DNA from: Candidatus Pacearchaeota archaeon
Lineage (GTDB): Archaea > Nanobdellota > Nanobdellia > Pacearchaeales > GW2011-AR1
Direction of reading: 5' to 3'
Assembly: GCA_016186365.1 (NCBI GenBank)
Contig: JACPLT010000015.1
Location: 1 to 48,739 of the forward strand
DNA: 48,739 bases
Of this stretch, positions 14,470 to 39,210 are shown piece by piece. The position numbers and the translations under genes are program-made. The stretch's first letter is position 1, and each line of letters begins with the position of its first letter. Below the pieces are notes generated by a model. It searched no databases. It worked only from the letters and a program-made list of their open reading frames with translations, and was not told where the DNA came from.

Positions 14470-14594
14470 GCGCTATTAGTTTATCGGTAGAATGAAGCCT
14501 TCCCAATGTAAGGAACCAAGGTTCCTTAACACTCAACCTCCTAAAAATAAAAAGGAAAAAGGCTTAGAGCCGGGTTCAATTCCCGGATGGCGCA
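14470..14594 (+). tRNA. tRNA-Gly(CCC) with a 54-nt intron at 37/38
   Basis: Acceptor GCGCTAT/ATGGCGC (one G-U). D arm GTTT-ATCGGTA-GAAT. Anticodon stem AAGCC/GGCTT with loop TTCCCAA (CCC at 14502-14504). T arm CCGGG-TTCAATT-CCCGG, discriminator A, no encoded CCA. Confidence 0.85.
14506..14559 (+). other. tRNA-Gly intron (canonical position)
   Basis: TTCC (32-35) pairs with GGAA (14554-14557), flanked by 3-nt bulges, giving bulge-helix-bulge geometry. Contains hairpin GGAACCAAGGTTCC. Homologous to the tRNA-Asn intron. Confidence 0.75.
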
Positions 14595-18971: not shown

Positions 18972-19207
18972 ATTAAGTAAACTATAGAACTTAACATCCT
19001 CTAATCACTTAAACCTATTATTCCCAGAGAATTTTATTTGTTCTCCCCTTTCCAAAAAAACTAGGGTTATTTTTGTTAGTTTTTAGGGTGCTCAGAAATG
19101 CACGAGGCAAATAGCATTTCTGACATAATAAGTGAGAAAAATCAAATTTCTGCTATACTATAAATTCTAAACTAGACAAGGGATGTTAAGGAGGTTATAG
19201 ACTTAAC
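18972..19207. mobile_element. MITE-like element, copy 1 (about 236 bp) carrying a nested 84-nt insertion
   Basis: Imperfect terminal inverted repeats TTAAGTAAACTATAGAACTTAACATCC (18973-18999) and GGGATGTTAAGGAGGTTATAGACTTAA (19180-19206). Shares a 23-mer and a 13-mer with the reverse complement of the 33.1-kb copy. No ORF. Confidence 0.7.
19080..19126 (+). repeat. hairpin repeat family, copy a (nested inside MITE copy 1)
   Basis: TTTTTAGGGTGCTCAGAAATGC...GCATTTCTGACAT, with 10-bp stem tcagaaatgc (19092-19101) pairing gcatttctga (19114-19123). Related copies lie at 29.5 kb (minus) and 41.4 kb. Confidence 0.65.
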
Positions 19208-19208
19208 A

Positions 19209-19988
19209 TTATCTAAAATACCCCAAAGCTTCTCGAACACTCTCAACTTCAACAATCTTTATTCCAGTTTCCTGCTCGATATTAACTTTTCTCGGAACTG
19301 TTTCATTCACGCAGACTTCATTTCCCCCAAACTGCTGGCAGTGCTCTCTTGATTCATAAACAACATCTGCAGAATTTAATAATGGAACTAAAAATAAATC
19401 TGCCCCTGAATTTTTTGCAGCTTTTGCCTTTTCTAAAATGTCAGAAACAGGCCCTATTGTTCCGTCATGATTGATTGTCCCGGTAATCATAACATTATCT
19501 TTTAAACTCTCGTTATTCAAAGCAAAAATAGTGGCAATAGAAATAGCCGCTCCTGCTGATGGTCCCCCAATTAAGCTTGCATTCGCCTCAACTCTATAAA
19601 CTAAATCATAATCATTTATTTCATTTTTAGAAAGATTTCCAGCAACATATCTTGCCATTCTTATACTCTGTTGAGTATCTGCCCAAAATAGCAGGTTGTC
19701 AATATCTACTAAAGTTTTTCCGCTTCCTTTTGTTGCTTCTACAATAAGCAGGCTGGAAATTCCCTTTCCGTCATAGCTGACAGCCGGCAATTTCATCTTT
19801 ATCAGAGTGGAGTTTTCCCTCGAGAAAAAACCCGGGGTTTTTTCTTTCTCAATAATTTTAGCTTTTTCATTCATGTCCTTAAGAAAACTGAATGAAAGCC
19901 CCTCAAGCAAAACGAACACAATTCCAGTTACAATTATGTATTTCACTAATTTGCTCATTCCCTTTTTTCTCATTATAATTTTATGCAA
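19209..19988 (-). CDS. membrane-anchored Lon-like serine protease (S16 proteolytic domain only)
   Basis: N-terminal TM. GGPSAGAAISIATIFAL (catalytic Ser context) and ITGTINHDGTIGPVSDILEKAKAA (catalytic Lys context) match the Lon C-terminal domain. Confidence 0.8.
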   Translation of the reverse strand: MHKIIMRKKGMSKLVKYIIVTGIVFVLLEGLSFSFLKDMNEKAKIIEKEKTPGFFSRENSTLIKMKLPAVSYDGKGISSLLIVEATKGSGKTLVDIDNLLFWADTQQSIRMARYVAGNLSKNEINDYDLVYRVEANASLIGGPSAGAAISIATIFALNNESLKDNVMITGTINHDGTIGPVSDILEKAKAAKNSGADLFLVPLLNSADVVYESREHCQQFGGNEVCVNETVPRKVNIEQETGIKIVEVESVREALGYFR

Positions 19989-20051
19989 ATTAACATTTAT
20001 ATATCTTTATTAAAAGTTGAACTCGCCCCCACAGATTTCCTAAATAGAGTA

Positions 20052-20065
20052 GAAAGATTTAAATA
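20052..20065 (+). promoter_or_regulatory. BRE/TATA-like promoter element for the RHH-HNH operon
   Basis: GAAAGATTTAAATA ends 22 nt upstream of ATG 20087, implying a leaderless or near-leaderless mRNA. An identical 14-mer lies upstream of tbp. Confidence 0.5.
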
Positions 20066-20086
20066 CATATGTAATATTATATTACT

Positions 20087-20419
20087 ATGGTAAACAAAGA
20101 TAAAAGAGAAGAAAAATCCACAGTTTTTAGTTTTAGGTTACCAAATAATTTGCTTAATGAAATTGATAAAATGGCTAAACAAGAACAGATTGATAGAGCT
20201 TCATGGATAAAACGAGCAATGGTTATAGCAATAGGTGAGCTAAGAGATTCAGCAGTTGAAGGAGCTATCGAAGATTATATTGCTGGAAAAATTGATGACG
20301 ATTTGTTTATCAAAGAAACAGAAAATAAACAAGTTCCACAAGATATTAAAGAAGCTAGAAAGAGGCATATTACCCATTTAGAAGAAAGGCTAACGAATAA
20401 AAGAGTTAAAGGAAAATGA
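20087..20419 (+). CDS. ribbon-helix-helix (CopG/Arc-like) DNA-binding protein
   Basis: TVFSFRLPNNLLNEIDKMAKQEQIDRASWIKRAMVIAI fits the RHH beta-alpha-alpha pattern. ATGA overlap with the next gene. Confidence 0.75.
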   Translation: MVNKDKREEKSTVFSFRLPNNLLNEIDKMAKQEQIDRASWIKRAMVIAIGELRDSAVEGAIEDYIAGKIDDDLFIKETENKQVPQDIKEARKRHITHLEERLTNKRVKGK

Positions 20420-21822
20420 AAAAGTTAATATTTGGCTTGTTTTTAATTATTTCTTTTATTAGTTCAGTTTCTGCTTGCCAATATAAAGTTAATGAAATTT
20501 ATCATGAAGTAGAAATGGGATTATATGACTCTTCTGGAAATTATGTGGGCGAACCTTTAATACTAAGCAATTTTAGTGGAGGATATCAAAATATTGCTGG
20601 ATGTGGACCATTGTCTATAATCATTTCAAATCCTCTTTCTTTTGATATAAACGTTGAGATTAATTTTACTGCAAGACATGATGGAATAATCGGTTGGCCC
20701 CAAGAAGATTATTTAATATCTAGAGCGATTACCATTAAATCGTTTTCATCAGAACAAATCGTGGGGGATTGCCCTTCGGTCGGAGGATCTAGATTATTAG
20801 AAGATTCTATTGAGTATGTAATAACTTCTCCAAAACTACTTATTCCTAAAATGCAAGAAGTAGAAAAGCAAAAAGAGATTTGTAAAATTTGTCCTAATGA
20901 AAAACAATGTTTGGATGATGGTGCTTCTTGTGATTTACCAATAGTATGTGGTTCAAATATCTGTAATCCCGATAATAAATGTGGAACCTTTCAAGGATGT
21001 TCCCAAGGCAAGAAATTATGTAATAACATTTCATGTTTAACTCCTTCAATTAAAAAAACCGAAGAGGCTTACTTATGTGATTGGGAATGTGCTTCTGGAA
21101 CAATAGCTTGTAATGGAATATGCAGGAATGTTTCTTCAAAGAAAATCGGACAGGAGTATTATTGTATTGAAGAATGTAAATCAGGATATGGCAAAGAGAA
21201 TAAATGTATAAGAAATCCCAATGTAGCTAGAAATTTATTAATTCTCTTTATCTCAATTATCCTTTTAATTCTAGGAATAGCATCTTATTTTATTATAGGG
21301 GCTATTAATGAAAAACGTGGAAGAAGGAAAGAGAAAGAGATAATAAAAGAAGCTGAAGAAAAAGCTGAAAAAATAATTAGCTCAGCTAAAAATAAATTAA
21401 AAAGGCTTAATGATGAAATTGAGAAATCTGAAAAATTAAAGACAGAACTTAACTCCCTAAAAAAAGGAAGTATCGAAGCCAGAAAAATAAAAAAAGAATT
21501 GGAAGAAACTAACGAATCAATTCAAAAAGAGAGAATAAGACAAGAAGAAGAAATTAAAAATACTTTGGAAGCATATGAAAAGAGATATAGTCATAGGTTT
21601 GTATTAGATAATAAAGGATATATAAGATTTGCTAAAGGATTTATTAGTGCGGGTATTGGGGGATATTTACATAGGTGGATATATAAGAATGTTCATGGGA
21701 AAATAAACGATGGATATGAAATTCACCATAAGGATTTTAATAAATTTAATAATGAAATAAACAATCTTGAAGAGTTAACTCCTAAAGAGCATCAAAATAA
21801 ACATCTTAATAGGTATAGATAA
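20416..21822 (+). CDS. single-pass membrane protein: lipobox-like signal, Cys-rich ectodomain, TM, coiled coil, C-terminal HNH nuclease
   Basis: Signal MKKLIFGLFLIISFISSVSAC. 20 Cys, most of them in the ~100 residues before TM LLILFISIILLILGIASYFIIGAI, then NEKRGRRKEKE (positive-inside). K/E-rich coiled coil, followed by HNH motif YEIHHKDFNKFNNEINNLEELTPKEHQNKH. Confidence 0.75.
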   Translation: MKKLIFGLFLIISFISSVSACQYKVNEIYHEVEMGLYDSSGNYVGEPLILSNFSGGYQNIAGCGPLSIIISNPLSFDINVEINFTARHDGIIGWPQEDYLISRAITIKSFSSEQIVGDCPSVGGSRLLEDSIEYVITSPKLLIPKMQEVEKQKEICKICPNEKQCLDDGASCDLPIVCGSNICNPDNKCGTFQGCSQGKKLCNNISCLTPSIKKTEEAYLCDWECASGTIACNGICRNVSSKKIGQEYYCIEECKSGYGKENKCIRNPNVARNLLILFISIILLILGIASYFIIGAINEKRGRRKEKEIIKEAEEKAEKIISSAKNKLKRLNDEIEKSEKLKTELNSLKKGSIEARKIKKELEETNESIQKERIRQEEEIKNTLEAYEKRYSHRFVLDNKGYIRFAKGFISAGIGGYLHRWIYKNVHGKINDGYEIHHKDFNKFNNEINNLEELTPKEHQNKHLNRYR

Positions 21823-21824
21823 AT

Positions 21825-22022
21825 ATGAAAATTGAAAAAATATTTGAGATTATTTGGCTAGTTTTCTTAGCAATAGCAATCCCCTCAATTGATGCTTTGG
21901 TAGCCATAGAATTTGGGAAGATTGTAGGAGGGGTTTATGGTTTTTTATTCTTTTTAATAGCGATTATCGCGACTATTGGACCTTGGATTAAAATATATAA
22001 AAAGATAGAAAAATTAAGATAG
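21825..22022 (+). CDS. small two-TM membrane protein
   Basis: 65 aa. Starts 3 nt after the HNH gene stop. Two hydrophobic helices. Confidence 0.45.
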   Translation: MKIEKIFEIIWLVFLAIAIPSIDALVAIEFGKIVGGVYGFLFFLIAIIATIGPWIKIYKKIEKLR

Positions 22023-22182
22023 TTAAACGCCCCCCAAATTCATTCATAAAAATTTTATATTCGCGGTGTAAACTCTCTTGCGGGAGCGTTTAACCAATTT
22101 TAGTATAATTTGGGCTTGTTTTTACACATAAAGTTATGCTAACATTAACCTTAGTAACTTGTCACCGCGAGATTATTAATAT

Positions 22183-22232
22183 CGAGGTTCAAATCCGAGA
22201 TAATGAGTGAGGCTGCGAGGATTTGAACCTCG
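22183..22232. repeat. 14-bp perfect inverted repeat built from a tRNA T-arm sequence
   Basis: cgaggttcaaatcc (22183-22196) is the exact reverse complement of ggatttgaacctcg (22219-22232), which is the T arm of the orphan tRNA half. Confidence 0.8.
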
Positions 22233-22243
22233 GACCCCGGCCT
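22208..22243 (-). tRNA. orphan tRNA 3' half (positions 38-73) preceded by an intron-like leader; no 5' half in cis
   Basis: The minus strand reads A-GGCCG-GGGTC-CGAGG-TTCAAAT-CCTCG-CAGCCTC-A. The leader 22244-22285 contains an exact 22-mer (22262-22283) also found in the tRNA-Asn intron. The required GAGGCTG 5' acceptor is absent before the rpl15e start. Confidence 0.5.
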
Positions 22244-22332
22244 TTCTAATATTTTCTACACAAGGAAGGTAGTGCGGTAGGAAAGAAACAAAGCAAGAAA
22301 AGCTTTAAAAACACCTGTTAACAGAAAATATT

Positions 22333-22890
22333 ATGAAATCAGCATATGACTATATTAAAGAGAATTTAAGAGCAGGTTTAAGAAACAAGTTAATTCAGTG
22401 GAGAGCTGAAGATTCTGCTGTCAGATTAGAAAAGCCAAGCGACATAGGCAGAGCCAGAAATCTTGGATATAAAGACAAGAAAGGTTATGTAATTATGAGG
22501 ATAAAACTAAAGAGAGGGGGAAGAAGGAGAATAAGAGTTAATAAAGGAAGAAGAAGCAAAAGGCAAACAGGAAGAAAAACTCTTAAAATGAATTACCGAT
22601 GGGTTGCTGAACAAAGAGCAGCAAGGAGATTCCCAAATTTAGAAGTTCTTAACTCATATGAAGTTGCAAAAGACGGACAATTCTATTTTTTTGAAGTAAT
22701 TATGATTGATACAAGCAGACCAGAAATTATAGCAGACAAAACAATTAACTGGATGTGCAGACCTGAAAACCAATCAAGAGCTTTCAGAGGGCTAACTTCA
22801 GCTGGAAAGAAATCAAGAGGATTATACAGCAAGTCAAGAAACCTTAAGATAAGACCAAGCCTAAGGTCATGGGACAGAAAAGGCAAGTAG
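22333..22890 (+). CDS. rpl15e: 50S ribosomal protein L15e
   Basis: MKSAYDYIKE...LIQWRAE...RLEKPSDIGRARNLGYKDKKGYVIMRIKLKRGGRRR...NSY matches the conserved L15e sequence pattern. Confidence 0.95.
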   Translation: MKSAYDYIKENLRAGLRNKLIQWRAEDSAVRLEKPSDIGRARNLGYKDKKGYVIMRIKLKRGGRRRIRVNKGRRSKRQTGRKTLKMNYRWVAEQRAARRFPNLEVLNSYEVAKDGQFYFFEVIMIDTSRPEIIADKTINWMCRPENQSRAFRGLTSAGKKSRGLYSKSRNLKIRPSLRSWDRKGK

Positions 22891-22953
22891 AATTCTTTTT
22901 GTTGGAAAAATATTTAAAAGAGAGGGTGTAATCAAAGATGTCTGATTAAAAAC

Positions 22954-23679
22954 ATGGCTAAAAATAATCCTGAAAAAAACAAGTTAACAAGAGAAAAAAT
23001 AGAAAAACTTCTGATAGATATCGCTATAAAAATAACAAAAGACGGAAAGGGTTGTTTATTTGTCATCAAAGAGAAAGAATTTGAATATGAAACAATGATA
23101 GAACAGGACATCAAGCAGTTCAATGTGATAGACTATCCCAGGAGATTAGAAGCTCTCTCAATAATTGATGGAGCTTGCGTAATTGACATTAATGGAAATC
23201 TTATAGCTTACTCTGCAAAAATAAAGAATACCAAGCCGTTTACAGGATACGGAACAAGGCATGCCGCAGCATATACCTCAAGTTTGAATGGCAACACTTC
23301 TATAATGTCCAGTGAGGAAGATAGAAAAGTAAAAATTTTCAAATCAGGAGTTTTAATAATGCAGATTGACCCCTTTGAAAAAAATATTGAATATAAAACT
23401 AAAGAAGCAGTTAATATTCTAGAAAGCATAGGCATAGGAAGTGTCGCTTCAATTACAGCTTCAACACTCGCTCCAGTATCTTATCTGACTGCATTTGGAA
23501 TATCCGCAGCTGCCCCTGCAGGTCTTGTCCTAATTCCAGGCATAGTTGTTTTTGCAACAACCCACTACATTCTAAAATCACTTCTAAAAAAGAAGTCAGA
23601 AGAAGAAAAAGCACAGCAAAGGACAATATTTGATTTTTTATGGAATATAGGAAGGAAAAAAAATGAAAACAAAGTTTAA
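22954..23679 (+). CDS. diadenylate cyclase (DAC/DisA_N) domain protein with C-terminal TM segments
   Basis: IIDGACVIDINGNL, GYGTRHAAAYTSS and MSSEEDRKVKIF correspond to the DGA, GTRHR/AA and SEE.G motifs of DAC domains. The C-terminus is hydrophobic (APAGLVLIPGIVVFATTHYIL). Confidence 0.7.
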   Translation: MAKNNPEKNKLTREKIEKLLIDIAIKITKDGKGCLFVIKEKEFEYETMIEQDIKQFNVIDYPRRLEALSIIDGACVIDINGNLIAYSAKIKNTKPFTGYGTRHAAAYTSSLNGNTSIMSSEEDRKVKIFKSGVLIMQIDPFEKNIEYKTKEAVNILESIGIGSVASITASTLAPVSYLTAFGISAAAPAGLVLIPGIVVFATTHYILKSLLKKKSEEEKAQQRTIFDFLWNIGRKKNENKV

Positions 23680-24700
23680 TTCTTATTGCATAAATGACTT
23701 GCCAAACGGATGCAAATATTGTGTAAAAGGAGAAAAACTCGTTCTGTTTATATCTGGAATCTGTTCAAGAAATTGTAAATACTGCTCATTAAGCAAAAAG
23801 AGGAAAAATAAAGATATAATTTATGCAAATGAAAAAATATGCAAGAATGTTAAAGAGTGCATAAAAGAGGCAGAGCTAAGCCATGCTAAAGGAGCAGGAA
23901 TAACCGGAGGAGACCCCCTTCTATTTCTTAAAAGAACTATTAGTTATGCTAAATCTTTAAAAAAACATTTCAAAAACTTTCACATTCATATATACCTTCC
24001 TACAAAACTTGTTACAGGAAAAAAATTAGAAAAGCTGTCTTCCTATATAGATGAAGTTAGGTTTCACCCAGAGTTCCTGATAAAGAAACCCGCCAATAAA
24101 GATAAGGAAAAAATAGAACTTGCTTCTTTATACTGGAAAAAAGAAAATATTGGATGCGAGCTTCCCTGCATTCCAGATAAAAAAGAAGAAATTGCAAATT
24201 TCATAAAAGAAATATCGGCTTATGTAGGATTTGTAAATTTAAACGAGTTTGAGATAAGTGAAACTAATTTTAATTGCATAAAATCAAATTATAAGCTTAA
24301 TCCAGATACTTACACAATAAAAGACTCCATAAAATCAGGTATATGGATAATAAATAAATGTAAAAATTTAGGAATAAAAATTCACCTATGCACTGCAAAA
24401 ACAAAGAATATCAATCAATATGTAAATCGGCTCAAATTAAGAGAATGCTTTCCTTATGGAAAAAAAACAAGCGAAGGAACAGTTGTCTATTTTGCAATTT
24501 ATTCAGATAATGCCGGCAATATAACAAAACATCTGAAAAAACAGGGATATTCCAATATGTTTTATATTGACAAAGAGAGAAAAAGAATACTTCTCTCCCA
24601 AAAGATAGTCAGAAAATTAATAGAAAAATACAGAATAAAAAAAGTTGAAGAATTCCCTACTTCAGACCATATTGAAATAGAATCAGAATACCTGAGTTAA
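23663..24700 (+). CDS. radical SAM protein
   Basis: CxxxCxxC cluster motif GICSRNCKYCSL, followed by a glycine-rich ITGGDPLL SAM-binding segment. Overlaps the DAC gene by 17 nt. Confidence 0.8.
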   Translation: MKTKFNSYCINDLPNGCKYCVKGEKLVLFISGICSRNCKYCSLSKKRKNKDIIYANEKICKNVKECIKEAELSHAKGAGITGGDPLLFLKRTISYAKSLKKHFKNFHIHIYLPTKLVTGKKLEKLSSYIDEVRFHPEFLIKKPANKDKEKIELASLYWKKENIGCELPCIPDKKEEIANFIKEISAYVGFVNLNEFEISETNFNCIKSNYKLNPDTYTIKDSIKSGIWIINKCKNLGIKIHLCTAKTKNINQYVNRLKLRECFPYGKKTSEGTVVYFAIYSDNAGNITKHLKKQGYSNMFYIDKERKRILLSQKIVRKLIEKYRIKKVEEFPTSDHIEIESEYLS

Positions 24701-24791
24701 AAGTGATACAAAACTTAGAACATCCAAAAATTATAAATTGATTAAATTTAAAAATAATTTAAAATGAATCTCAAAAAATATAAGATAAAAT

Positions 24792-25235
24792 TTATTTAAA
24801 AAACCCAACAGATTTCAAGAAAAGGTAAAGTAATATCAGCAAAAGTATCCATAATATTATCCTTGGATCAATTACAAACTGCCCTTTTTTATTTTTTCTT
24901 TTGAACAACTCTTCTAAAACTCTTAGTCTTACATCCATTTTACTAAATAACTCGTTAAAGTTTAAATCCCTCCTTACATCTTCTATATTTTTATTATTAA
25001 TGTCTATATCATTGCACATCTTTTTATATCTTCCCCTTATAAAATATAGGAATATTATAAATATAACGACTCCGATAATAATCCCTGTATAAATCAATGC
25101 CTGATAAGTTATCTCTTTTGGAGAGGTTTTCAATAAAAAGTATATAGGGATTGCAGCAAATATAAGTGTGGATATTTGTATAAATAAATCTGCCCATCTG
25201 GGAAGTTTATTATCCGAATCCGCTGCCATTTGCAC
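24792..25235 (-). CDS. hypothetical membrane protein
   Basis: 147 aa with three hydrophobic helices. No motif recognised. Confidence 0.5.
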   Translation of the reverse strand: MQMAADSDNKLPRWADLFIQISTLIFAAIPIYFLLKTSPKEITYQALIYTGIIIGVVIFIIFLYFIRGRYKKMCNDIDINNKNIEDVRRDLNFNELFSKMDVRLRVLEELFKRKNKKGQFVIDPRIILWILLLILLYLFLKSVGFFK

Positions 25236-25335
25236 AAGAAATAATTGATATTTTATAAATCTATCTAATGATATAGTCTAATAAAGTAAATATACAAACA
25301 AGAACATTAATAAATATTATTTGTTTAGTATAAAA

Positions 25336-27030
25336 ATGAAATACTCTGATTTATGCAAGGTTTATGAAGAGCTGGAAAAAACAACAAAGGGGCTGGAAAA
25401 AACCTCTATTTTATCAAAATTTCTGGAGAAAATAGAAAACGAGCCTGAAATAATTTATCTTCTTCAGGGAAGGATATTTCCAGATTATAATAATCAGGAA
25501 CTTGGGATATCCACACAACTCGTGATAAAAGCGATTGCAAGAGCCACAGGTATAGAAGAGCCCGAAGTTATAAAAGAATTCAAGAAACTTGGAGATTTGG
25601 GAAAAGTTGCAGAATTCCTTATTAACAAAAAAAGGCAGTCAACTTTATTTTCAAAAAATCTTACTACAGAGAAAATACTTGCTAATTTAAAGAAGATTCC
25701 AGAATTGGAGGGAAAAGGAACAATTGATAAAAAACTTGCACTTATTATAGAACTCCTTAACTCTGCAAGAGGAGAAGAAGCGAAATACATAATAAAAACT
25801 ATTTTATCAGATTTAAAAATAGGAGTAGGCAGCGGATTAATAAGAGATGCAATTGTGGATTACTGCTACCATCCAAAAAGTATTGAAGAAAAAAAAGCAG
25901 GTATTGAAAAAGTTCAGGAGGCTTATGATATCACCACAGATTTTGCAGAGGTTTTCAATAAAACCTGCAAGAATTCTTTATCTTCAATCTCCCTATCTCC
26001 AGGAAAGCCGGTCAAAGTGATGCTGTTTCCAAAAGCAGAAAATATAGACAATGCTTTTGAAATAGTAGGAAAACCTGCTGCTTTTGAATATAAATATGAC
26101 GGATTCAGAATGATGATTAACAAGCAGGATAACGGAGAGATAAAGATATTCACAAGAAGGCTGGAGAATGTAACAAAGCAGTTTCCAGATGCAGTGAAAT
26201 ATATAAAAGAAAACATAAAAGGAAAAAGTTTTATTCTTGATGCAGAAGCAGTAGGCTATTCCCCAATAACAAAAGAATATCGTGCATTTCAGGATATCTC
26301 CCAAAGAATAAAAAGAAAATATAATATTAATATCCTTGAAAAAGAGCTGCCAATAGAATTGAACATATTTGATATAATCTATTTCGAAGGAAGTTCTTTG
26401 ATTAGCACCCCCTTCAAAAAAAGAAGAGAGCTAATTGAAAAAATAATTAAACCCTCACCTTTCAAAATAAAACTGGCTGAACAGATAATAACTGCAGATG
26501 AAAAAGAAGCAGAAGAGTTCTATGAAAAAGCTCTTGAAGAAGGACAAGAAGGATTAATGGCAAAAAACCTTGAGGCAGGATACAAACCAGGAGCAAGAGT
26601 GGGGCATGCAGTAAAGCTAAAGCCAGACGCAGAAGAGTTGGATTTAGTTATAACCGGAGCAGAATATGGGACAGGGAAAAGAGCAGGCTGGCTTACCAGT
26701 TATGATGTTTCTTGCAAGAATAATGCGTCTCTGCTTGAAATAGGAAAGGTTTCAACAGGATTAAAAGAAAAACAAGAGCAGGGATTATCTTTTATTGATT
26801 TAACAAATGAGCTTAAAAAAATAATAATAAAAGAAGAGGGGAAGCATTTATTCGTAAAGCCGGAGATAGTTATAACCGTAGGATATCAAAATATACAAAA
26901 ATCTCCCTCCTACTCTTCGGGATATGCCCTGAGATTTCCAAGGGTGAAAGCTCTCCGTCCAGACAGGAGCATTTCAGACATAGCAACACTTAAAGAAGTG
27001 GAAAAAGAGTTCATCAAACAGCAAAAATAA
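25336..27030 (+). CDS. lig: ATP-dependent DNA ligase
   Basis: Adenylation motif I EYKYDGFRM, motifs ILDAEAV and MAKNLEAGYKPGARVGHAVKLK, and an OB-domain tail. The ORF track starts at TTG 25321; the first ATG is 25336 (MKYSDL). Confidence 0.95.
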   Translation: MKYSDLCKVYEELEKTTKGLEKTSILSKFLEKIENEPEIIYLLQGRIFPDYNNQELGISTQLVIKAIARATGIEEPEVIKEFKKLGDLGKVAEFLINKKRQSTLFSKNLTTEKILANLKKIPELEGKGTIDKKLALIIELLNSARGEEAKYIIKTILSDLKIGVGSGLIRDAIVDYCYHPKSIEEKKAGIEKVQEAYDITTDFAEVFNKTCKNSLSSISLSPGKPVKVMLFPKAENIDNAFEIVGKPAAFEYKYDGFRMMINKQDNGEIKIFTRRLENVTKQFPDAVKYIKENIKGKSFILDAEAVGYSPITKEYRAFQDISQRIKRKYNINILEKELPIELNIFDIIYFEGSSLISTPFKKRRELIEKIIKPSPFKIKLAEQIITADEKEAEEFYEKALEEGQEGLMAKNLEAGYKPGARVGHAVKLKPDAEELDLVITGAEYGTGKRAGWLTSYDVSCKNNASLLEIGKVSTGLKEKQEQGLSFIDLTNELKKIIIKEEGKHLFVKPEIVITVGYQNIQKSPSYSSGYALRFPRVKALRPDRSISDIATLKEVEKEFIKQQK

Positions 27031-27057
27031 AATTCGCATAAAAATTGATGCTTTTTC

Positions 27058-27510
27058 TTATCCAGAGGTAATTTCAAGGAATTTTTTTATCTTATCCTTT
27101 GCATCTTCTAAACTTGCATAAGCATAACATTCAAAAAAAGAGGGGATATATTGAGAGTTCATTTTTCCTTGGATATAAGCGGAAACTTTATCTTTTAACT
27201 CTCCTTTGAATAAACACAAAATGGGTTTTCCTAAATGAATCATGTCAGAAATCTCGCTTCCCACTCCCAAGCTAGGATTGCTTACTTCAAAAATTCCTAC
27301 ATCAGATTCCAGCTCCCATTTATAATCTCTATCATGAATACAAGTTTTTGTAAGTTTATTCTCTTCTTCTATTATGCCTACTTGTATTTGATGTCTAGAA
27401 ACCAATTTGTGTCCCAATTTCTCTATACTTTCTTGAAGCCTTTCTAATTCCTCTCTTTTTACAACATCCTGTCCTCCCCTCATAGCACAACCAAAAAATA
27501 CTTTTGCCAT
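27058..27510 (-). CDS. nucleoside 2-deoxyribosyltransferase-like protein (DNPH1/Rcl-like)
   Basis: N-terminal VFFGCAMRGGQD resembles the DNPH1 (I/V)YF(C/A)GSIRGGR motif. 150 aa, the right size. Confidence 0.65.
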   Translation of the reverse strand: MAKVFFGCAMRGGQDVVKREELERLQESIEKLGHKLVSRHQIQVGIIEEENKLTKTCIHDRDYKWELESDVGIFEVSNPSLGVGSEISDMIHLGKPILCLFKGELKDKVSAYIQGKMNSQYIPSFFECYAYASLEDAKDKIKKFLEITSG

Positions 27511-27645
27511 AAAGTTAATTAATATGATTATTTTTAAATCTTACATTCATAAAAAAGTGCAAAAGAGAATATGACCTCAAAATTACATTGTTCAAATAAT
27601 CTTACAAAAAATAAATTTATAAACTACCTCTTCCTATAATAAAAA

Positions 27646-27758
27646 ATGAAAAAATTTGATAATTTTTACCTCGTTAAATTTCAGGAGAAATTTAAGATGA
27701 AAAAAATGAATGAATTTTTTACCTCGTTAAATTTCAGGAGAAATTTAAGATGAAAAAG
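27646..27758 (+). repeat. tandem duplication (51 + 53 nt units plus a partial third) of the ribosome-binding site and start-codon region
   Basis: The unit ATGAAAAAA...TTTTTACCTCGTTAAATTTCAGGAGAAATTTAAG occurs at 27646-27696 and 27697-27749, with a third ATGAAAAAG at 27750. The 42-mer 27663-27704 equals 27716-27757. Confidence 0.85.
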
Positions 27759-33084: not shown

Positions 33085-33241
33085 ATTAAGTAAACCTTGT
33101 AAATTAACATCTCCCGATTAAATATTATTCACCTAGAATTTGATTTTTCTCCCTTATTAAAAGGGGAGAACAAATAAAATTCAGGTCATATAATCCATTA
33201 AGTACTCGGTGTGAGATGTCAAGTTTGATTGTTTACTTAAG
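33085..33241. mobile_element. MITE-like element, copy 2 (about 157 bp, opposite orientation to copy 1)
   Basis: TTAAGTAAAC (33086-33095) pairs with GTTTACTTAA (33231-33240), and inner ACATCTC pairs with GAGATGT. Internal aaaaggggagaacaaataaaattc and aatttgatttttc match copy 1 in reverse complement. GAATAAAT is present on both flanks. Confidence 0.7.
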
Positions 33242-33302
33242 AATAAATTTATTAAAAAGAAGTCGTAGTAATATTTAAAAGAGATTAAAAGCTTTAATTT
33301 TT

Positions 33303-33599
33303 ATGCAATTAAAAATCCATCAGTCATACAGAAATGTAGTCTGTATCTGTGATTCTGAGCTGCTGGGAAAGCAGTTTGAAGAAAAAGAAAAGATACTCAA
33401 TGTCAGAGAAAGCTTCTATAAAGGAGATGAAATGGATGAACAGAAATTAGTCAAGACTATAGATGACATGGCAAAAGAAGATGCCACTTTTAATATTGTG
33501 GGAGAAAAATCAGTTAATCTAGCTATAAAAGCGGGAATTATCAGCAAAGAAGGAGTCAAATCAGTTTCAGGTATTCCTTTTGCTTTAGTTTTGATGTAG
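33303..33599 (+). CDS. DUF424-family archaeal protein
   Basis: The pattern VVCICDSELLGKQFEEKEKILNVRESFYKGDEM resembles the conserved DUF424 N-terminal block. Confidence 0.6.
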   Translation: MQLKIHQSYRNVVCICDSELLGKQFEEKEKILNVRESFYKGDEMDEQKLVKTIDDMAKEDATFNIVGEKSVNLAIKAGIISKEGVKSVSGIPFALVLM

Positions 33600-33717
33600 G
33601 GTTCTCAAACATTATGTATTCAATACATACTAATCATCAGTTAGTATAATTCGAATTCATAGATATTAACGCATTAACCAAAAAGCTTAAATATAGTATT
33701 TTCTACTAATATATTAC

Positions 33718-34047
33718 ATGGAAGAATTATTAAAAAATGCTCAAGAATTCCTAGAATCAGGAGAAGATAATATCAAAAAACAAAGATTCAGCCCTGCTGT
33801 TTCTGATTTCTTCAAGGCAATAGTAATCTTTTGCGATTATCTAATTTATAAAGAAATAAAAATAATACCAAAAAATCACGCTGACAGATTCTCTTTGCTG
33901 GAAAAATATTTTTCAGAAATTTATATCAAAATTTCAGAATTGTTTAAGCTTTATACTCAATCATACAATCTTAGATTAAAAATCGAAGATGCAGTTAAAT
34001 TGAAAAATTATGCCCATGAACTTAGAAATCTTGCAGATAAAAAATAA
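33718..34047 (+). CDS. HEPN-like protein (partner of the adjacent nucleotidyltransferase)
   Basis: 109-aa all-helical ORF that overlaps the downstream minimal NTase gene, the usual HEPN-MNT layout. I do not see a clean Rx4-6H motif. Confidence 0.55.
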   Translation: MEELLKNAQEFLESGEDNIKKQRFSPAVSDFFKAIVIFCDYLIYKEIKIIPKNHADRFSLLEKYFSEIYIKISELFKLYTQSYNLRLKIEDAVKLKNYAHELRNLADKK

Positions 34048-34537
34048 GCTTAAAAATTATCTTAATGACAAAAGAATACTAGATATAATCATATTTGGTT
34101 CTGCTGTAAAAGGAAAAGCCATGCCAAATGACATAGATATTGCAATAATATGTAATGAAGATATAAAAATAGATATTAATAATTTTCATATTAGTGTATT
34201 AAAATCAGAAGATTTTCTCAAACCCATTTCAATTATTAACACATTATTCAGAGAAGGGTATAGTTTAAAATATAATATGCCTTTTTCTGAAGTGCATAAG
34301 TTCTCAAGCAAAGTTCTATTTAGATATGAACTTTCTGGATTAAATTCCTCAACAAAAGTAAAAGTAGTTAATTTCTTAAGAGGAAAGGGCAATTCGTCAG
34401 GAATTGTAAAAGAAAATAAAGGGGAATGGCTGGCAAATCAGGTTTTTTTAATTCCTATAACTAACGAGCATATTTTTGAAAAATTTTTTATAAATTTTAA
34501 TGTGAAATATAAAAAATTCTTTATATTAATACATTAA
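34010..34537 (+). CDS. minimal nucleotidyltransferase (MNT-type) with extended C-terminus
   Basis: IIIFGSAVKGKAMPNDIDIAII is the GS-x10-DxD signature of the Pol-beta superfamily. Confidence 0.75.
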   Translation: MPMNLEILQIKNKLKNYLNDKRILDIIIFGSAVKGKAMPNDIDIAIICNEDIKIDINNFHISVLKSEDFLKPISIINTLFREGYSLKYNMPFSEVHKFSSKVLFRYELSGLNSSTKVKVVNFLRGKGNSSGIVKENKGEWLANQVFLIPITNEHIFEKFFINFNVKYKKFFILIH

Positions 34538-34543
34538 TTTAAA

Positions 34544-34792
34544 ATGATAAAAAGTAAACAAAAAGATAATACATTAATTAAGATAAATAAGCTAAGTTCA
34601 GAAATGAAGAATGCAGGAATAACCCGGGTGAGTGATGATTCTCTATACTTTATTGACCAGTTTATCTGGGAGAAAATTAAAAAAATAATTCCCTCGTTAA
34701 AGCAGGAAATGATAATTCATGGAAGAAAGACTCTGAAAAAAGAAGATGTTAAAAGTGTTCTTGAATTAAAAAAAGAATTTTCAGAAATCTAA
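34544..34792 (+). CDS. histone-fold protein (archaeal histone-like)
   Basis: AGITRVSDDSLYFIDQFIWEKIKKIIPSLKQEMIIHGRKTLKKEDVKSVL parallels HMf-type (RVS.DA...A.HAGRKT.K.EDI). Confidence 0.65.
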   Translation: MIKSKQKDNTLIKINKLSSEMKNAGITRVSDDSLYFIDQFIWEKIKKIIPSLKQEMIIHGRKTLKKEDVKSVLELKKEFSEI

Positions 34793-34840
34793 AACTCCCT
34801 CTATCATCACCTTTATAAATCACCCTTATCTTTAATTTTT

Positions 34841-35155
34841 ATGGAGCAATATAATCAACAGCCAACAGAATTTGTAAGAGTAAAACTTCCGAGAGGAAGG
34901 GAAATTCTAGGAATAATCGAGCAAAGAGTTGGTGGAACAAGAATGCAGGTAAAATGTGTAGATGGTAAACTAAGAAACTGCAGAGTTCCAGGAAGGCTAA
35001 GAAGAAGTCTATGGTTAAGAGAGGGAGATATAGTAATAGTAGAACCCTGGGAATTCGATAATGAAAAGGGGGATGTTCTTTTCAAATACAATCCTACTCA
35101 AATTCAGTGGCTCGAAAGAAAAGGGCATCTTAAAAATATTAAAAATGAATTCTAA
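34841..35155 (+). CDS. eif1a: translation initiation factor aIF1A
   Basis: S1-like OB core: VRVKLPRGREILGIIEQRVGGTRMQVKCVDGKLRNCRVPGRLRRSLWLREGDIVIVEPWEF. Confidence 0.9.
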   Translation: MEQYNQQPTEFVRVKLPRGREILGIIEQRVGGTRMQVKCVDGKLRNCRVPGRLRRSLWLREGDIVIVEPWEFDNEKGDVLFKYNPTQIQWLERKGHLKNIKNEF

Positions 35156-35699
35156 CATACAGGAAAAAGAAGAGAGAATAATAGGAATTCTAAAACCTCA
35201 AACAATCAGGAAAATAGCTGCAAGCAGGAAAAAGCTGGAAATTTCTCTCAAAACAAAAATTAGCATAAAAAGCAGCATAATCACTGTTTCTGGAAGCGAG
35301 ATTAATAACTATCTGGCAGAAAAAGTATTTGAAGCTTTAGACAGGAATTTTCCAATAAATGTTTCTCTTCTTCTTTTAGACGAAGACTTCATTCTTGAAG
35401 ATATTTTAATTAAAGAGATAACAAAGAAAAAAAATATACCCATAATAAGAGCCAGAATAATAGGGACAGAAGGAAAAACCCTCAAAGTATTGGGAGAGTT
35501 GTCAAACTCCTATGTAACCTTAAACGACAACACAGTAAGTGTAATCGCTCCTTCCGAAAACATAAAAGAAATAACCAATGCTATAATAAGTTTAATCAAC
35601 GGAAGCAAGCAGGCTAAAGTTTATGCCTATCTTGAAAAAAACAGAAAGAAGAAGATTTTCTCAAAAAACAAGATAAGCGACAATCCTAGTAAGCTTTAA
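35145..35699 (+). CDS. KH-domain RNA-binding protein (Dim2/Pno1-like)
   Basis: The ORF track starts at 35061. ATG 35145 overlaps the aIF1A stop by 11 nt. The KH-like block is ARIIGTEGKTLKVLGELSNSYVTLNDNTVSVIA. Confidence 0.65.
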   Translation: MNSNIQEKEERIIGILKPQTIRKIAASRKKLEISLKTKISIKSSIITVSGSEINNYLAEKVFEALDRNFPINVSLLLLDEDFILEDILIKEITKKKNIPIIRARIIGTEGKTLKVLGELSNSYVTLNDNTVSVIAPSENIKEITNAIISLINGSKQAKVYAYLEKNRKKKIFSKNKISDNPSKL

Positions 35700-35725
35700 A
35701 AATCTCTTGTATTTTAGATTTTCAA

Positions 35726-35856
35726 GTCCCAGTAGCTCAGCAGGTAGAGCAACTGACTGTTAAAGCGCAGGAAACCAAGGTTTCCTACCGCACTACCTTC
35801 CTTAAAGAAGCTAAATTGAAATCAGTGGGTCGTTGGTTCGAGTCCAGCCTGGGACG
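35726..35856 (+). tRNA. tRNA-Asn(GUU) with a 58-nt intron at 37/38
   Basis: Acceptor GTCCCAG/CTGGGAC. D arm GCTC-AGCAGGTA-GAGC. Anticodon stem ACTGA/TCAGT with loop CTGTTAA (GTT at 35759-35761). Variable loop GGGTC, T arm GTTGG-TTCGAGT-CCAGC, discriminator G. TATA-like GCTTTAAAAAT lies about 25-30 nt upstream. Confidence 0.9.
35763..35820 (+). other. tRNA-Asn intron
   Basis: Contains hairpin GGAAACCAAGGTTTCC followed by TACCGCACTACCTTCCTT. The 22-mer at 35782-35803 recurs at 22262-22283 on the opposite strand. Confidence 0.8.
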
Positions 35857-35872
35857 TTTATAAAAGAGGAAA

Positions 35873-36718
35873 ATGAGTTTCATAACACCCGTAGTATCTG
35901 CACTATTGCAGGCAAGTTCATTCACCCTAGACAAAGTTATAATGTCTGCAAAAAAAGTAACTTATAAAAATTATATTGGACTAAGTTTCCCTCTTATATT
36001 CATAATTAACCTTATAATATTTCTCATATTCCGGCCAGAACTATCCCCAAGATTGTTCGCAGGAAAATTTCTGTTTCTGGTAATCCTTTCTATCTCCCTT
36101 TCAATAATAATAAACCTGATTTTCTATAAAGCCCTCAAATCTGAAAAGCTGAATGAAATAGAGATGATTTCTTTGCTCGGCTCAATCCCAGTTATAATTC
36201 TGACTAGTTTTATATTTGAATCAGAAAGAAACTTTATGATAATAATCCTTGCTTTAATCTCCTCTTCAGCTATCATCTGGTCGCACTGGAGAAAAGATCA
36301 CTTCCAGATTGCAAAAAAAACATGGGCATATCTTCTTGCTACACTAATAATCAGCCCGATAGGCGCGATAACATCAAAGATCCTTTTGGCAGAGTGGAAC
36401 CCTATGTCTTTAGAATTAGTAAGGTCTTTTTTTCTCGCCGTAATTTTCAGCATGTTCTTTTTTAAATCCATAGAAAAAACAGGAGCAAAAACATTTCTTC
36501 TATTAGTTATAACAAACATTCTTACCACAATCGCATGGATATTATATTATTTCTCATACAAAACAAATGGAGTTATTGAGACAGTTTTAATTTTTTCCCT
36601 TCAGCCCATGCTTGTCTATTTAGCATCTTTCATTCTTCTAAAAGAAAAATTCCACATGAAAAAATTCATAGCGTTCGTTATTGTTCTTGCCTCAATTACT
36701 CTCTCGCAAATTCTATAG
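35873..36718 (+). CDS. EamA/DMT-superfamily membrane transporter-like protein
   Basis: 281 aa with about 10 hydrophobic helices in two similar halves. Confidence 0.65.
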   Translation: MSFITPVVSALLQASSFTLDKVIMSAKKVTYKNYIGLSFPLIFIINLIIFLIFRPELSPRLFAGKFLFLVILSISLSIIINLIFYKALKSEKLNEIEMISLLGSIPVIILTSFIFESERNFMIIILALISSSAIIWSHWRKDHFQIAKKTWAYLLATLIISPIGAITSKILLAEWNPMSLELVRSFFLAVIFSMFFFKSIEKTGAKTFLLLVITNILTTIAWILYYFSYKTNGVIETVLIFSLQPMLVYLASFILLKEKFHMKKFIAFVIVLASITLSQIL

Positions 36719-36752
36719 CAATCTTTTTATATCCCTGTTTGTTATAGGTAAC

Positions 36753-37313
36753 ATGGATTTAGACAAAGCAATAAAAGAGAGGCATTCATCAAGGAGATAT
36801 TCTTCCAAAAAAGTTGCCTGGCAGGATATAATGAAAGCTGTCAATTTAGCAAGACTCGCACCTCTAGCAGGAAATATTCCCACTCTAAAATTTGTGGTTA
36901 TAGATGATAAAGAAACAATGCAAAAGCTGGCAGACGCCTGTCAGCAGGATTTCGTTGCAACTGCAAAATACGTCGTAGCTGTCTGTTCTGATAATTCTAA
37001 TCTTCTAGTAAGTTATGAAGATAGGGCTAAAAAATACTCTCATCAGCAGGCAGGAGCAGCAATAGAAAATTTTCTTCTCAAAATAGCAGAATTAAGATTA
37101 ACAACCTGCTGGGTTGGTGCATTTGTCGATGAACAAGTAAAAAGCATATTGAAAATTCCAGGCAGCATTGAAGTTGAAGCCCTATTCCCAATTGGATATG
37201 AAATGCCCCCTAAGTCCAAGCAAAGAACAAAAATAAATCTTGACAGAATGCTGTTCTTTAATTCCTGGGGCAACAGGTATATGGTTCCATTAAAAAAGCC
37301 CGAGGGCTTGTAG
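36753..37313 (+). CDS. nitroreductase-family protein
   Basis: ATG 36753 gives MDLDKAIKERHSSRRY, the canonical nitroreductase N-terminus (R-x-S-x-R). APLAGN... follows. The ORF track starts at 36681. Confidence 0.8.
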   Translation: MDLDKAIKERHSSRRYSSKKVAWQDIMKAVNLARLAPLAGNIPTLKFVVIDDKETMQKLADACQQDFVATAKYVVAVCSDNSNLLVSYEDRAKKYSHQQAGAAIENFLLKIAELRLTTCWVGAFVDEQVKSILKIPGSIEVEALFPIGYEMPPKSKQRTKINLDRMLFFNSWGNRYMVPLKKPEGL

Positions 37314-38027
37314 TTACTTTTTTGCTATAAAAGCTGCATAAAGAGGGTCTTTATTATAACCTTCCCAAAATTCTTCCCCCATTGATTTTATGCCCTCAGG
37401 AATTACACTAAGCTCTTTCCAATCTATCTCTTTAAAACCAGATTTAAGTGCTGCTTTTTTATAATCTTGTTTTGAAAAATAAGAATAGTCTGAACTAAAA
37501 GAATATTTTCCATTAATAAAAAATTCAGTTCTCATCTTTCTTCCAGATATTTTTAATATTCTTCTGTTATAAACAATCTTACCAAGTCTAGAAAAATTGG
37601 GGTTGATAATTATAGCCAAAAATTCTCCTCCATTTCTTAGATGCTTAAATGCAGAGTTAAAAAAAGAAACTAACTCTGAATAATTTTTAGCATAGAATAA
37701 AACCATGTTAGAAACAGCTTTATCAAATTTTTCATGATAATCAAATTTATTCTGGTCTGAACAAAAAAACTTCATATTTTTATTCTCTCTCGCTTTTGCT
37801 AGCTCTATTTGTCTTTCTGATGAATCATACCCTATGATTTTTGCTCCTTTTTCTGCAATAATGCTTGTAAAATACCCATCTCCACATCCAATGTCTAAAA
37901 TTAACTTTCCATGTATATCTCCTAAAAGTCGTATTGCTTCAGGGTATTGTAAATACTTTTTAAGAGGGTCCTGAATTATTAGTTTAGAATAATCTTCTGC
38001 AAGGTGATTATATTGTTTTATGCTCAT
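37314..38027 (-). CDS. class I SAM-dependent methyltransferase
   Basis: Motif I ILDIGCGDGYFT, followed by IIGYDSSERQI (acidic post-I residue). Confidence 0.8.
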   Translation of the reverse strand: MSIKQYNHLAEDYSKLIIQDPLKKYLQYPEAIRLLGDIHGKLILDIGCGDGYFTSIIAEKGAKIIGYDSSERQIELAKARENKNMKFFCSDQNKFDYHEKFDKAVSNMVLFYAKNYSELVSFFNSAFKHLRNGGEFLAIIINPNFSRLGKIVYNRRILKISGRKMRTEFFINGKYSFSSDYSYFSKQDYKKAALKSGFKEIDWKELSVIPEGIKSMGEEFWEGYNKDPLYAAFIAKK

Positions 38028-38060
38028 ATAAAAAATAAGAGAATAGCATATTTATAAATT

Positions 38061-38123
38061 TACATTCAATCAGTCAAAAAAAATAAAAAGAAAAAAAAGA
38101 AAAAAGCTGCTCTGACGAGCAGC
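38061..38123 (-). terminator. hairpin plus long oligo-T tract downstream of ftsZ
   Basis: gctgctc (38106-38112) pairs with gagcagc (38117-38123), 8 nt after the ftsZ stop. On the minus strand this is followed by a T-rich run (plus-strand A-run 38065-38105). Confidence 0.55.
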
Positions 38124-38130
38124 AATTGAA

Positions 38131-39210
38131 TTATCTGTAAGTTCTTATTCCCAAATCAGACATCTCGCTAGACATTCCTGTATTCTGTGAATAAGTTTGC
38201 TTTCCAAGGATGTATGGAGACTTAACTCCAGTCATAATTGTTATGACTCTTACCTTTCCAGTAAAATCTTTGTTAATTCTCGCCCCAATAATAACTTGAG
38301 CTTCAGAATTAAGATTCTCTGAAACCATCTGCCCGATTGTGCTGAATTCTTCCAGCTTCAAATCAGGCCCGCCAGTAATGTGTATCAAAGCTCCAGTTGC
38401 TCCCTTATAATCAACATCCAGCAAAGGATGAGACATTGCTTGTTTAACTGCCTCATCAACTCTGCTTGAATTGTCGCTCTCTCCAATTCCAATTACAGCT
38501 ACATCTCCATTCTTCATGATAGCTGAAACATCTGCATAATCCAAGTTAATCAATGATGGGAGAGTAATAGTTTCCACTATTCCCTTTATCATTGTGCTAA
38601 TCAACTCGTTTGCAACTGCAAATGCTTGTTCCATTGGAAGATTTCCTGCAACATCTACCAGTCTATTATTATCAATAACAACCACAGTATCAGTTACATC
38701 TCTCAATTCCTGCAACCCAAATTCCGCCTTGTCTATTCTAGCTTTTTCGCAGTCAAATGGCATGGTAACAACCGCTATTACTACTGCTCCTGTTTCTTTT
38801 GCAAGTTGTGCAAATACAGGTGCAGAGCCAGTTCCTGTTCCACCACCCATTCCAGCTATAATAAAGACCATATCTGCTCCAGATACAGACTTCTTAATGT
38901 CTGAAATAGCCTCTTTTGCTGCCTCTCTGCCTTTTTGAGGGTATCCTCCGCATCCCAATCCTCTTGTCAATTCTTTTCCAATAAGGATTTTTTCATCAGC
39001 CTTGGTTATGCTAAGATGAAGTGCATCTGTGTTGGCTCCATAAACTGTAGCCCCATTGATACCTTTATTAAAAAGCCAGGTTACTGCATTACATCCTGCT
39101 CCACCACATCCAAAAACCTTGATATTCGCTTTTCCAGCTTTCAACTCATCAAAGTTAATGCTATGAGTAGATGCATTCTCTATTGCTTCTTTGGCAAAAT
39201 CTAATACCAT
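38131..39210 (-). CDS. ftsZ: cell division protein FtsZ
   Basis: IKVFGCGGAGCNAV, tubulin signature GMGGGTGTGSAPV and NLDYADV. An SD-like AAAGGAGGA lies upstream. Confidence 0.95.
   Translation of the reverse strand: MVLDFAKEAIENASTHSINFDELKAGKANIKVFGCGGAGCNAVTWLFNKGINGATVYGANTDALHLSITKADEKILIGKELTRGLGCGGYPQKGREAAKEAISDIKKSVSGADMVFIIAGMGGGTGTGSAPVFAQLAKETGAVVIAVVTMPFDCEKARIDKAEFGLQELRDVTDTVVVIDNNRLVDVAGNLPMEQAFAVANELISTMIKGIVETITLPSLINLDYADVSAIMKNGDVAVIGIGESDNSSRVDEAVKQAMSHPLLDVDYKGATGALIHITGGPDLKLEEFSTIGQMVSENLNSEAQVIIGARINKDFTGKVRVITIMTGVKSPYILGKQTYSQNTGMSSEMSDLGIRTYR

Follow-up and report, generated by a model that had tools for sequence, protein, structure and literature searches.

A probable 3' remnant of an intron-containing tRNA-Ile(GAU) gene beside rpl15e in a Candidatus Pacearchaeota contig

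Introns of archaeal tRNA genes lie canonically between positions 37 and 38, where the precursor adopts a bulge-helix-bulge (BHB) that is cut by EndA, after which the exons are joined by an RtcB-type ligase. Split, trans-spliced tRNA genes have also been described, in Nanoarchaeum equitans, Caldivirga maquilingensis, Staphylothermus and Aeropyrum (PMC3218864, PMC2237900). Here we analyzed what looks like one half of such a gene, a stand-alone tRNA 3' half on the minus strand of a 48,739-nt stretch from Candidatus Pacearchaeota archaeon (contig JACPLT010000015.1 of assembly GCA_016186365.1), which is referred to as the window throughout. The half is located in the 310-nt spacer between a 65-aa open reading frame (ORF; 21825-22022, plus strand) and rpl15e, from which it diverges. 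The initial annotation had favored a split-tRNA half gene with an intron-derived leader and had listed a rearrangement scar or dead remnant, such as an old attachment (att)-site duplicate, as the alternative. Our comparison with same-strain contigs indicates that the window copy is very probably a dead 3' remnant of a contiguous, intron-containing tRNA-Ile(GAU) gene.

The closest case in the literature of a gene fragment together with allele heterogeneity at a single tRNA locus is tRNA-Thr of Caldiarchaeum subterraneum. There, a recombinase-encoding element has displaced a 5' piece of the gene, and a functional gene is present in the same genome (Sugahara et al. 2012, PMC3293823). The tRNA-Ile locus seems likewise to exist in more than one form, including a fragment, and has a mobile-looking module adjacent to it and related introns in the genome. 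It differs in that the fragment is a 3' piece left by a simple 130-bp deletion, that the module is common to both alleles and that no second functional copy was seen. Compared with split tRNAs, the locus shares the stand-alone 3' half that starts at position 38 after intron-like sequence and the DPANN/Nanoarchaeota-related genome, but a partner 5' half, a dedicated promoter and a G/C-rich complementary leader are all missing, and a contiguous gene is found in the same strain. With canonical intron-containing genes, the intact allele shares the 37/38 intron, the 3' bulge, the 4-bp helix and its own BRE (transcription factor B recognition element)/TATA promoter, although its 59-nt intron is long relative to the 0, 13 and 17 nt of relatives, and the window keeps only the 3' exon and 41 nt of intron. 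Finally, tRNA intron transposition has been proposed for Thermoproteales (discussed in PMC4090602 and PMC4033280), and here too three tRNAs (Ile, Asn and Gly) carry homologous introns, although all three are at the canonical position and the host belongs to DPANN.

The window has a G+C content of about 32%. The best matches of its L15e protein are proteins of metagenome-assembled genomes (MAGs) labelled Nanoarchaeota, Woesearchaeota or Pacearchaeota archaeon, with identities of at most 72%, so the host is a DPANN-type archaeon without a close sequenced relative.

A contiguous tRNA-Ile(GAU) gene in same-strain contigs

Same-strain contigs were retrieved from public assemblies of two sequencing runs by means of the exact L15e protein and the exact 65-aa protein (Table 1). 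Beyond window position 22284, contig L007 goes on with CCATGGGTTTCCTTCGCTTATCAGAGCCGTGCTCTAACCAGACTGGGCTACAGCCTCAT, which supplies the remainder of an intron together with a 5' exon. Read on the tRNA strand, L007 consists, in order, of the 5' exon GAGGCTGTAGCCCAGTCTGGTTAGAGCACGGCTCTGATA, the intron AGCGAAGGAAACCCATGGTTTCCTACCGCACTACCTTCCTTGGGTAGAAAATATTAGAA and the 3' exon AGGCCGGGGTCCGAGGTTCAAATCCTCGCAGCCTCA. This intact gene spans 134 nt (a 39-nt 5' exon, a 59-nt intron at 37/38 and a 36-nt 3' exon); its 5' exon runs GAGGCTG...CGGCT, and the intron is inserted one nucleotide 3' of the anticodon. Since the anticodon is GAU, the gene encodes tRNA-Ile. The Rfam tRNA model RF00005 called it on the minus strand of L007 (816-949) with 48 bits against a gathering threshold of 29, over the full model (1-71) and with a single insertion after position 37, that is, as a four-arm cloverleaf above the Rfam tRNA threshold. 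The first bases of contig L001 also belong to this 5' exon; from there the contig crosses 73 nt of upstream DNA and enters rpl15e, and its 36-nt overlap with L007 is identical.

When the anticodon arm and intron of the intact allele were folded together, the prediction showed the anticodon stem and a 4-bp CUGA/UUAG helix between anticodon and intron, with 3 nt bulged out at the 3' splice site (AA before the cut and A after it) and the 5' splice site at the helix/loop boundary as in the relaxed form. An enforced bulge-helix-bulge lay only 0.3 kcal/mol above the minimum free energy. The predicted fold is thus consistent with splicing at 37/38 through a BHB or its relaxed form, the bulge-helix-loop. 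The intact allele, as given by L007 and L001, is a canonical intron-containing archaeal tRNA gene. By analogy with other archaeal tRNAs, its transcription would be driven by a BRE/TATA promoter of its own some 30 nt upstream, and the relaxed BHB of the pre-tRNA would be cut at 37/38 by the splicing endonuclease before an RNA ligase joined the exons.

Followed from both sides, the alignment showed the window to be the merged intact locus with exactly 130 bp taken out. Three parts are missing: 73 nt upstream of the gene, the entire 39-nt 5' exon and, of the 59-nt intron, the first 18 nt. The upstream DNA includes the TATA box of the tRNA itself (TTTTAAATA, at -33 to -25), the spacing of which matches that of the TATA boxes before tRNA-Asn and tRNA-Gly in the window. 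There is no other copy in the window of the deleted segment or of the 5' exon, the latter with up to three mismatches allowed, and the motif GAGGCTG is absent from the window apart from the complement of the 3' acceptor strand. The initial annotation had correctly reported that the matching 5' half is missing near the feature.

The 3' half that remains is present exactly as first described, with position 38, the anticodon-stem strand GGCCG, the variable loop GGGTC, the T arm CGAGG-TTCAAAT-CCTCG, the acceptor strand CAGCCTC and the discriminator A, and it is unique: across the window it occurs in a single copy with up to three mismatches allowed, whereas 100 shuffles gave 0 matches. The Rfam tRNA model made no call at 22208-22300 even at E <= 10; the sole match around the 3' half at this cutoff was a weak mascRNA-like (tRNA-like) one at 22209-22244 with 19.6 bits. 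The window copy thus does not hold both exons of a canonical intron-containing tRNA gene, its 5' exon and 18 nt of its intron being gone.

Taken together, these data make it very probable that window 22208-22284 (minus strand) is the dead 3' remnant of a contiguous, intron-containing tRNA-Ile(GAU) gene. In this contig, a 130-bp deletion with 3 nt of microhomology took away the 5' exon in full, together with the promoter and the beginning of the intron, and the remaining copy, promoterless and partnerless, would be non-functional and unable to yield a tRNA. The alternative of a rearrangement scar or dead remnant was therefore essentially right, in the form of an internal deletion and not of relocated halves. 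The gene itself is ordinary and of an already known kind, seen here truncated.

Table 1. Positions of the features and contigs discussed (window numbering unless a contig is named).
Feature	Position	Strand	Remarks
3' exon of tRNA-Ile(GAU), positions 38-73, discriminator A, 36 nt, AGGCCGGGGTCCGAGGTTCAAATCCTCGCAGCCTCA	22208-22243	-	Identical to 3' exons of L007 and L009-L013
Last 41 nt of the 59-nt canonical (37/38) tRNA-Ile intron, initially described as a leader	22244-22284	-	Comparison with intact allele
Deletion junction, 3-nt AAA/TTT microhomology	22282-22284	.	Window against L007 plus L001
Window sequence across the junction			GGTAGGAAAGAAACAAAGC
Join in the deletion allele			GGTAGGAAA to GAAACAAAGC
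Joins in the intact allele			GGTAGGAAA to CCATGGGTTTCC; AACACAAA to GAAACAAAGC
Intron of intact tRNA-Ile	L007 853-911
rpl15e promoter, A-rich BRE-like stretch and TATA CTTTAAAAAC	22295-22312 (TATA 22303-22312)	+	30 nt before ATG
rpl15e, ribosomal protein L15e	22333-22890	+	Divergent neighbor of the tRNA-Ile slot
Module of about 2.1 kb	20087-22158	+	Between Lon_C and 3' end of tRNA-Ile; missing from relative L015
14-nt perfect inverted T-arm copy in the 3' trailer	22183-22196	+	Pairs with 22219-22232; 11 nt past the discriminator
tRNA-Asn(GUU), intron about 58 nt	35726-35856	+	Rfam 55 bits; intron 35763-35822
tRNA-Gly (anticodon read as CCC), diverged member of the intron family	14470-14594	+	Intron 14507-14563
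Contig L001 (SRR12113424)	22282-27692 (5411 nt)		100% identity
Contig L002 (SRR12113424)	19138-22259		99.97% identity
Contig L007 (SRR12113420)	21393-22284		99.8% identity
Contig L017 (SRR12113424), control	33212-38362, right through tRNA-Asn		100% identity

Separate halves, promoters and an attachment site

A genuine split tRNA would have the 3' half expressed from a bidirectional TATA at about 22303-22312 and trans-spliced to a 5' half encoded elsewhere, and recently split tRNAs beside mobile elements are indeed known (PMC3218864, PMC3293823). To look for sequences of either half, we used one degenerate pattern for the 5' exon or the 3' exon on either strand, which was validated first on the window and the retrieved loci, and scanned GTDB species genomes, JGI metagenome contigs and viral contigs, collections that do not include the window's own contig. 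The species genomes and metagenome contigs yielded five matches, all of them complete tRNA-Ile(GAU) genes of relatives, while the viral contigs contained no match to either exon or to the 23-nt intron sequence described below. An orphan 5' half was thus found neither in the window nor in the three collections; the source genome beyond the window was not available to the search, which leaves some room for a separately encoded partner. A permuted tRNA was also rejected, as the 185 nt downstream of the 3' half hold no acceptor or D-arm sequence.

Expression of the 3' half would have to come from what is left upstream of it. In keeping with a split gene, neither the 3' exon nor the bulge at the 3' splice site is damaged, and about 60 nt upstream there is an AT-rich TATA. 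A TATA-like element had been described upstream of the leader on the minus strand; the sequence is present at about 22301-22309 and belongs to rpl15e. The A-rich BRE side of this TATA faces rpl15e, and the same motif precedes rpl15e at equal spacing in relatives L015 and L016, so that the minus-strand TATA appears, from its orientation, to be the rpl15e promoter read backwards. Backward firing of this promoter is possible in principle but unsupported. Judged from the sequence, the tRNA's own TATA was within the deleted 130 bp.

The sequence between this promoter and the 3' half had been taken for an intron-derived leader. The intron origin was confirmed, but the sequence is the 3' two-thirds of the gene's own intron and not the leader of a split half. 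As initially reported, a 22-mer (TTCCTACCGCACTACCTTCCTT) occurs at exactly two sites in the window, at 22283-22262 on the minus strand and at 35782-35803 on the plus strand, within the tRNA-Asn intron, and no shuffle gave two matches; the shared stretch is in fact a 23-mer (TTTCC...), extending one nucleotide further. This exact match exists because the tRNA-Ile and tRNA-Asn introns are homologous, and no split-gene leader is needed to account for it. The sequence with which the supposed leader would naturally pair (AGCGAAGGAAACC...) belongs to the same intron, to its deleted 5' part. TTTCCT and CCGC in the remnant can pair with AGGAAA and GCG of the intact intron, and a relocated trailer could accordingly form about 9 bp with it. 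The leader has a G+C content of 37%, however, whereas the leaders of known split tRNAs are G/C-rich (PMC3218864).

Measured by the features that define split tRNAs in PMC3218864, the window copy lacks a separate 5' half as well as a dedicated promoter with a G/C-rich leader, and a contiguous gene exists: in L007 and L001, from the same strain, the matching 5' half is joined to the 3' half through the 59-nt intron. Because this contiguous gene occupies the same locus in the same strain, the split-tRNA reading favored at first is not upheld, and we consider it very improbable.

The remnant lies in what is a conserved tRNA-Ile slot, as judged from the gene order of relatives. In L015, one of the closer relatives, Lon_C (minus strand), tRNA-Ile(GAU) (minus strand) and rpl15e (plus strand) follow each other, and L014, another of them, likewise carries tRNA-Ile on the minus strand close to rpl15e. 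Further removed relatives whose 3' exon is identical have a complete tRNA-Ile, which adjoins rpl15e in L010/L012 and L013 (directly upstream of rpl15e in L012 and L013) and lies in another context in L009/L011.

On its other side, the slot is bordered by the module listed in Table 1, which encodes a 110-aa RHH/CopG-like protein, a 468-aa protein with a C-terminal HNH_3 endonuclease domain and the 65-aa ORF, followed by a conserved 135-nt non-coding tail. Its 3' part (21534-22158, from the end of the HNH gene through the 65-aa ORF to the tail) is 84% identical to sequences in L003/L008, where different DNA follows. The module is probably a small mobile element that inserted beside the tRNA gene. 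Because intact (L002 and L007) and truncated alleles alike contain it, it did not cause the deletion.

The proximity of this module bears on whether the 3' half is an att-site duplicate, that is, a displaced tRNA 3' end left by an integrative element such as the HNH module. A mobile-looking module does abut the tRNA 3' end, is missing in L015 and has a related copy elsewhere in L003/L008. The 14-nt perfect inverted copy of the T arm between module and tRNA, which was confirmed at 11 nt past the discriminator, could be added to this. However, no integrase domain was detected in the HNH module, there is no second 3' half in the 48.7-kb window, neither exon occurs on any viral contig, and the remnant, unlike a duplicate, runs co-linear with the intact allele at every base of the 3' exon and intron. 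In addition, the module is unchanged in the intact-allele contigs L002 and L007 and is thus not linked to the loss of the 5' half. With both a direct second copy and an integrase lacking, an att-site origin was not borne out, and we regard it as the least credible of the explanations considered.

The inverted T-arm copy itself is also found in the intact-allele contigs L002 and L007, within the 50 nt that separate the HNH module from the tRNA. In intact alleles, a small hairpin (ATCTCG...CGAGAT) is present there (window 22178-22202), and the A that the window has instead of C at 22181 weakens it. The inverted copy and the T arm could form a 14-bp stem on either strand. The copy may serve as a terminator for the plus-strand module or may be an insertion relic.

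Haplotype or assembly artefact

Whereas the preceding comparisons concern what the window copy is, its origin depends on whether the deletion exists in the population. Compared with about 13.7 kb of sister contigs, the window shows three differences only, namely single-nucleotide polymorphisms (SNPs) at 22181 and 22260 and the deletion, all within 104 nt. Both SNPs are C>A changes on the plus strand, with A in the window and C in the intact allele of the sister contigs, and the one at 22260 is inside the intron tail. Contig L002 stops exactly one base before the 22260 SNP, and the window allele therefore seems to co-occur in SRR12113424. Since the three differences are clustered and the tRNA-Asn locus is unbroken, the data point to local heterogeneity at the tRNA-Ile locus.

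The three same-strain contigs around this locus all end within or at the edge of tRNA-Ile: L002 at the 22260 SNP, L001 at C32 and L007 at 3 nt upstream of position 1. These ends suggest that more than two alleles or contexts are present in these samples. An explanation of the contig ends by a repeat at k = 31 shared with other tRNA introns was rejected, as the Ile and Asn introns share no exact match longer than 25 nt and the Asn locus is unbroken.

Alternatively, the organism may have only the intact gene, with the 130-bp gap and the two SNPs resulting from chimeric or low-coverage reads or from the path that the assembler took at a tangled tRNA node. Reading of the codons AUU and AUC depends on tRNA-Ile(GAU), and a genome that lacks it is not expected to be viable; the gene should thus be essential, and in relatives it fills a conserved single slot beside rpl15e. 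Two independent samples show the intact allele with flanks identical to the window, the junction is seen in the window only, and C>A, the change at both SNPs, is also typical of oxidative library damage. On the other hand, a de Bruijn assembler cannot collapse a microhomology of 3 nt, which falls far short of any k-mer overlap, and no repeat of k-mer size connects the two breakpoints. The tRNA-Asn locus, which has the same kind of intron, was assembled cleanly (L017), and the end of L002 exactly at the 22260 SNP suggests that the window allele is really present in SRR12113424. In our estimate, a real haplotype is the somewhat favored origin, and an artefact is a possibility to be taken seriously without being preferred; a functional split gene and an att duplicate together account for very little.

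Several points weigh against the reading of the locus as a remnant produced by a real deletion. In the comparison of assemblies, the junction is supported by the window contig only, and the end points of L001 (C32) and L007 (3 nt upstream of the gene) are only partly explained. No ORF of at least 30 aa, which was sought as a route to independent contigs with the junction, spans the deletion junction. Small DPANN genomes are expected to have a single, essential copy of tRNA-Ile(GAU), which disfavors a fixed real deletion. Moreover, the intact allele has a D-stem mismatch, C12-A23, that is flagged by Rfam, whereas relatives have U12; the 5' exon carrying C12 is found at L007 916-949 and L001 1-34. 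This mismatch could mean that the locus was already decaying while a functional copy exists elsewhere, or it could be tolerated. A second tRNA-Ile(GAU) gene or a relocated 5' half is possible in the part of the genome unseen beyond the window. That the deletion allele is both real and viable, with tRNA-Ile(GAU) supplied by such a second gene or by a relocated 5' half pairing with the intron tail, nevertheless strikes us as very improbable.

Intron family, neighboring sequences and implications

The truncated tRNA-Ile intron is a member of a structured intron family, about 54-59 nt in length, found at the canonical position of three tRNAs. In the intact allele, the Ile intron is identical to the Asn intron at about 38 of the first 41 nt, and both contain the same hairpin, GCG-(AGGAAACC...GGUUUCCU)-CGC, followed by a second small hairpin; the Gly copy is more diverged. 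A corrected regular expression for the intron module matched only the Asn and Ile copies, and an Rfam scan of the intron alone returned no family. Orthologs of tRNA-Ile(GAU) are intronless in L009/L011, L013 and L015 or have short, unrelated introns (13 nt in L014, 17 nt in L010/L012). This distribution suggests, from sequence comparison, that the intron family recently spread within this DPANN lineage, a kind of event with precedents in other archaea.

The introns also affect annotation. An Rfam scan of the window called the two intron-bearing tRNAs for Gly and Asn, while ARAGORN, run with bacterial settings on the whole window, called zero tRNAs and missed all three intron-bearing loci because each has an intron of about 54-59 nt, which is too long. 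Annotation pipelines based on ARAGORN would under-call tRNAs in this lineage.

Further repeats and structured elements were observed in the vicinity of the locus and of its orthologs. A 13-nt inverted repeat (GTTAAACGCCCCC and GGGAGCGTTTAAC, with a 47-nt loop) at 22022-22094 starts at the stop codon of the 65-aa ORF. This region is conserved in L003/L008, but the stem is broken there by two mismatches, and covariation therefore lends it no support. An inverted 11-mer shared by the intron tail (22247-22257) and the rpl15e leader (22323-22333) is compatible with chance in AT-rich DNA. In L009 (Woesearchaeota MAG CAYHEY010000077.1), a structured element of about 90 nt is located at about 1230-1330, some 50 nt downstream of the intronless tRNA-Ile. 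It reads GAGCCGAGG...T-loop-like GGTTCAAAT...9-bp hairpin...CCTCGCGGGCTCA and contains tRNA-like pieces, with no Rfam call at the gathering threshold; it may be an unusual or disrupted tRNA.

A deletion allele that proved both real and viable would be informative about the disruption of tRNA genes. In that event, the locus would capture a DPANN tRNA gene in the process of being broken up or split, beside a mobile HNH module and in a genome where at least three tRNAs recently acquired one structured intron. Such a scenario is not supported by the data at hand. The intron family is a minor point of possible interest to tRNA specialists. For the organism itself, the sampled population seems to vary locally at the tRNA-Ile locus, and the case advises caution in that a lone tRNA half in a metagenome contig can mimic a split-tRNA gene, an ambiguity that same-strain assemblies resolved here.

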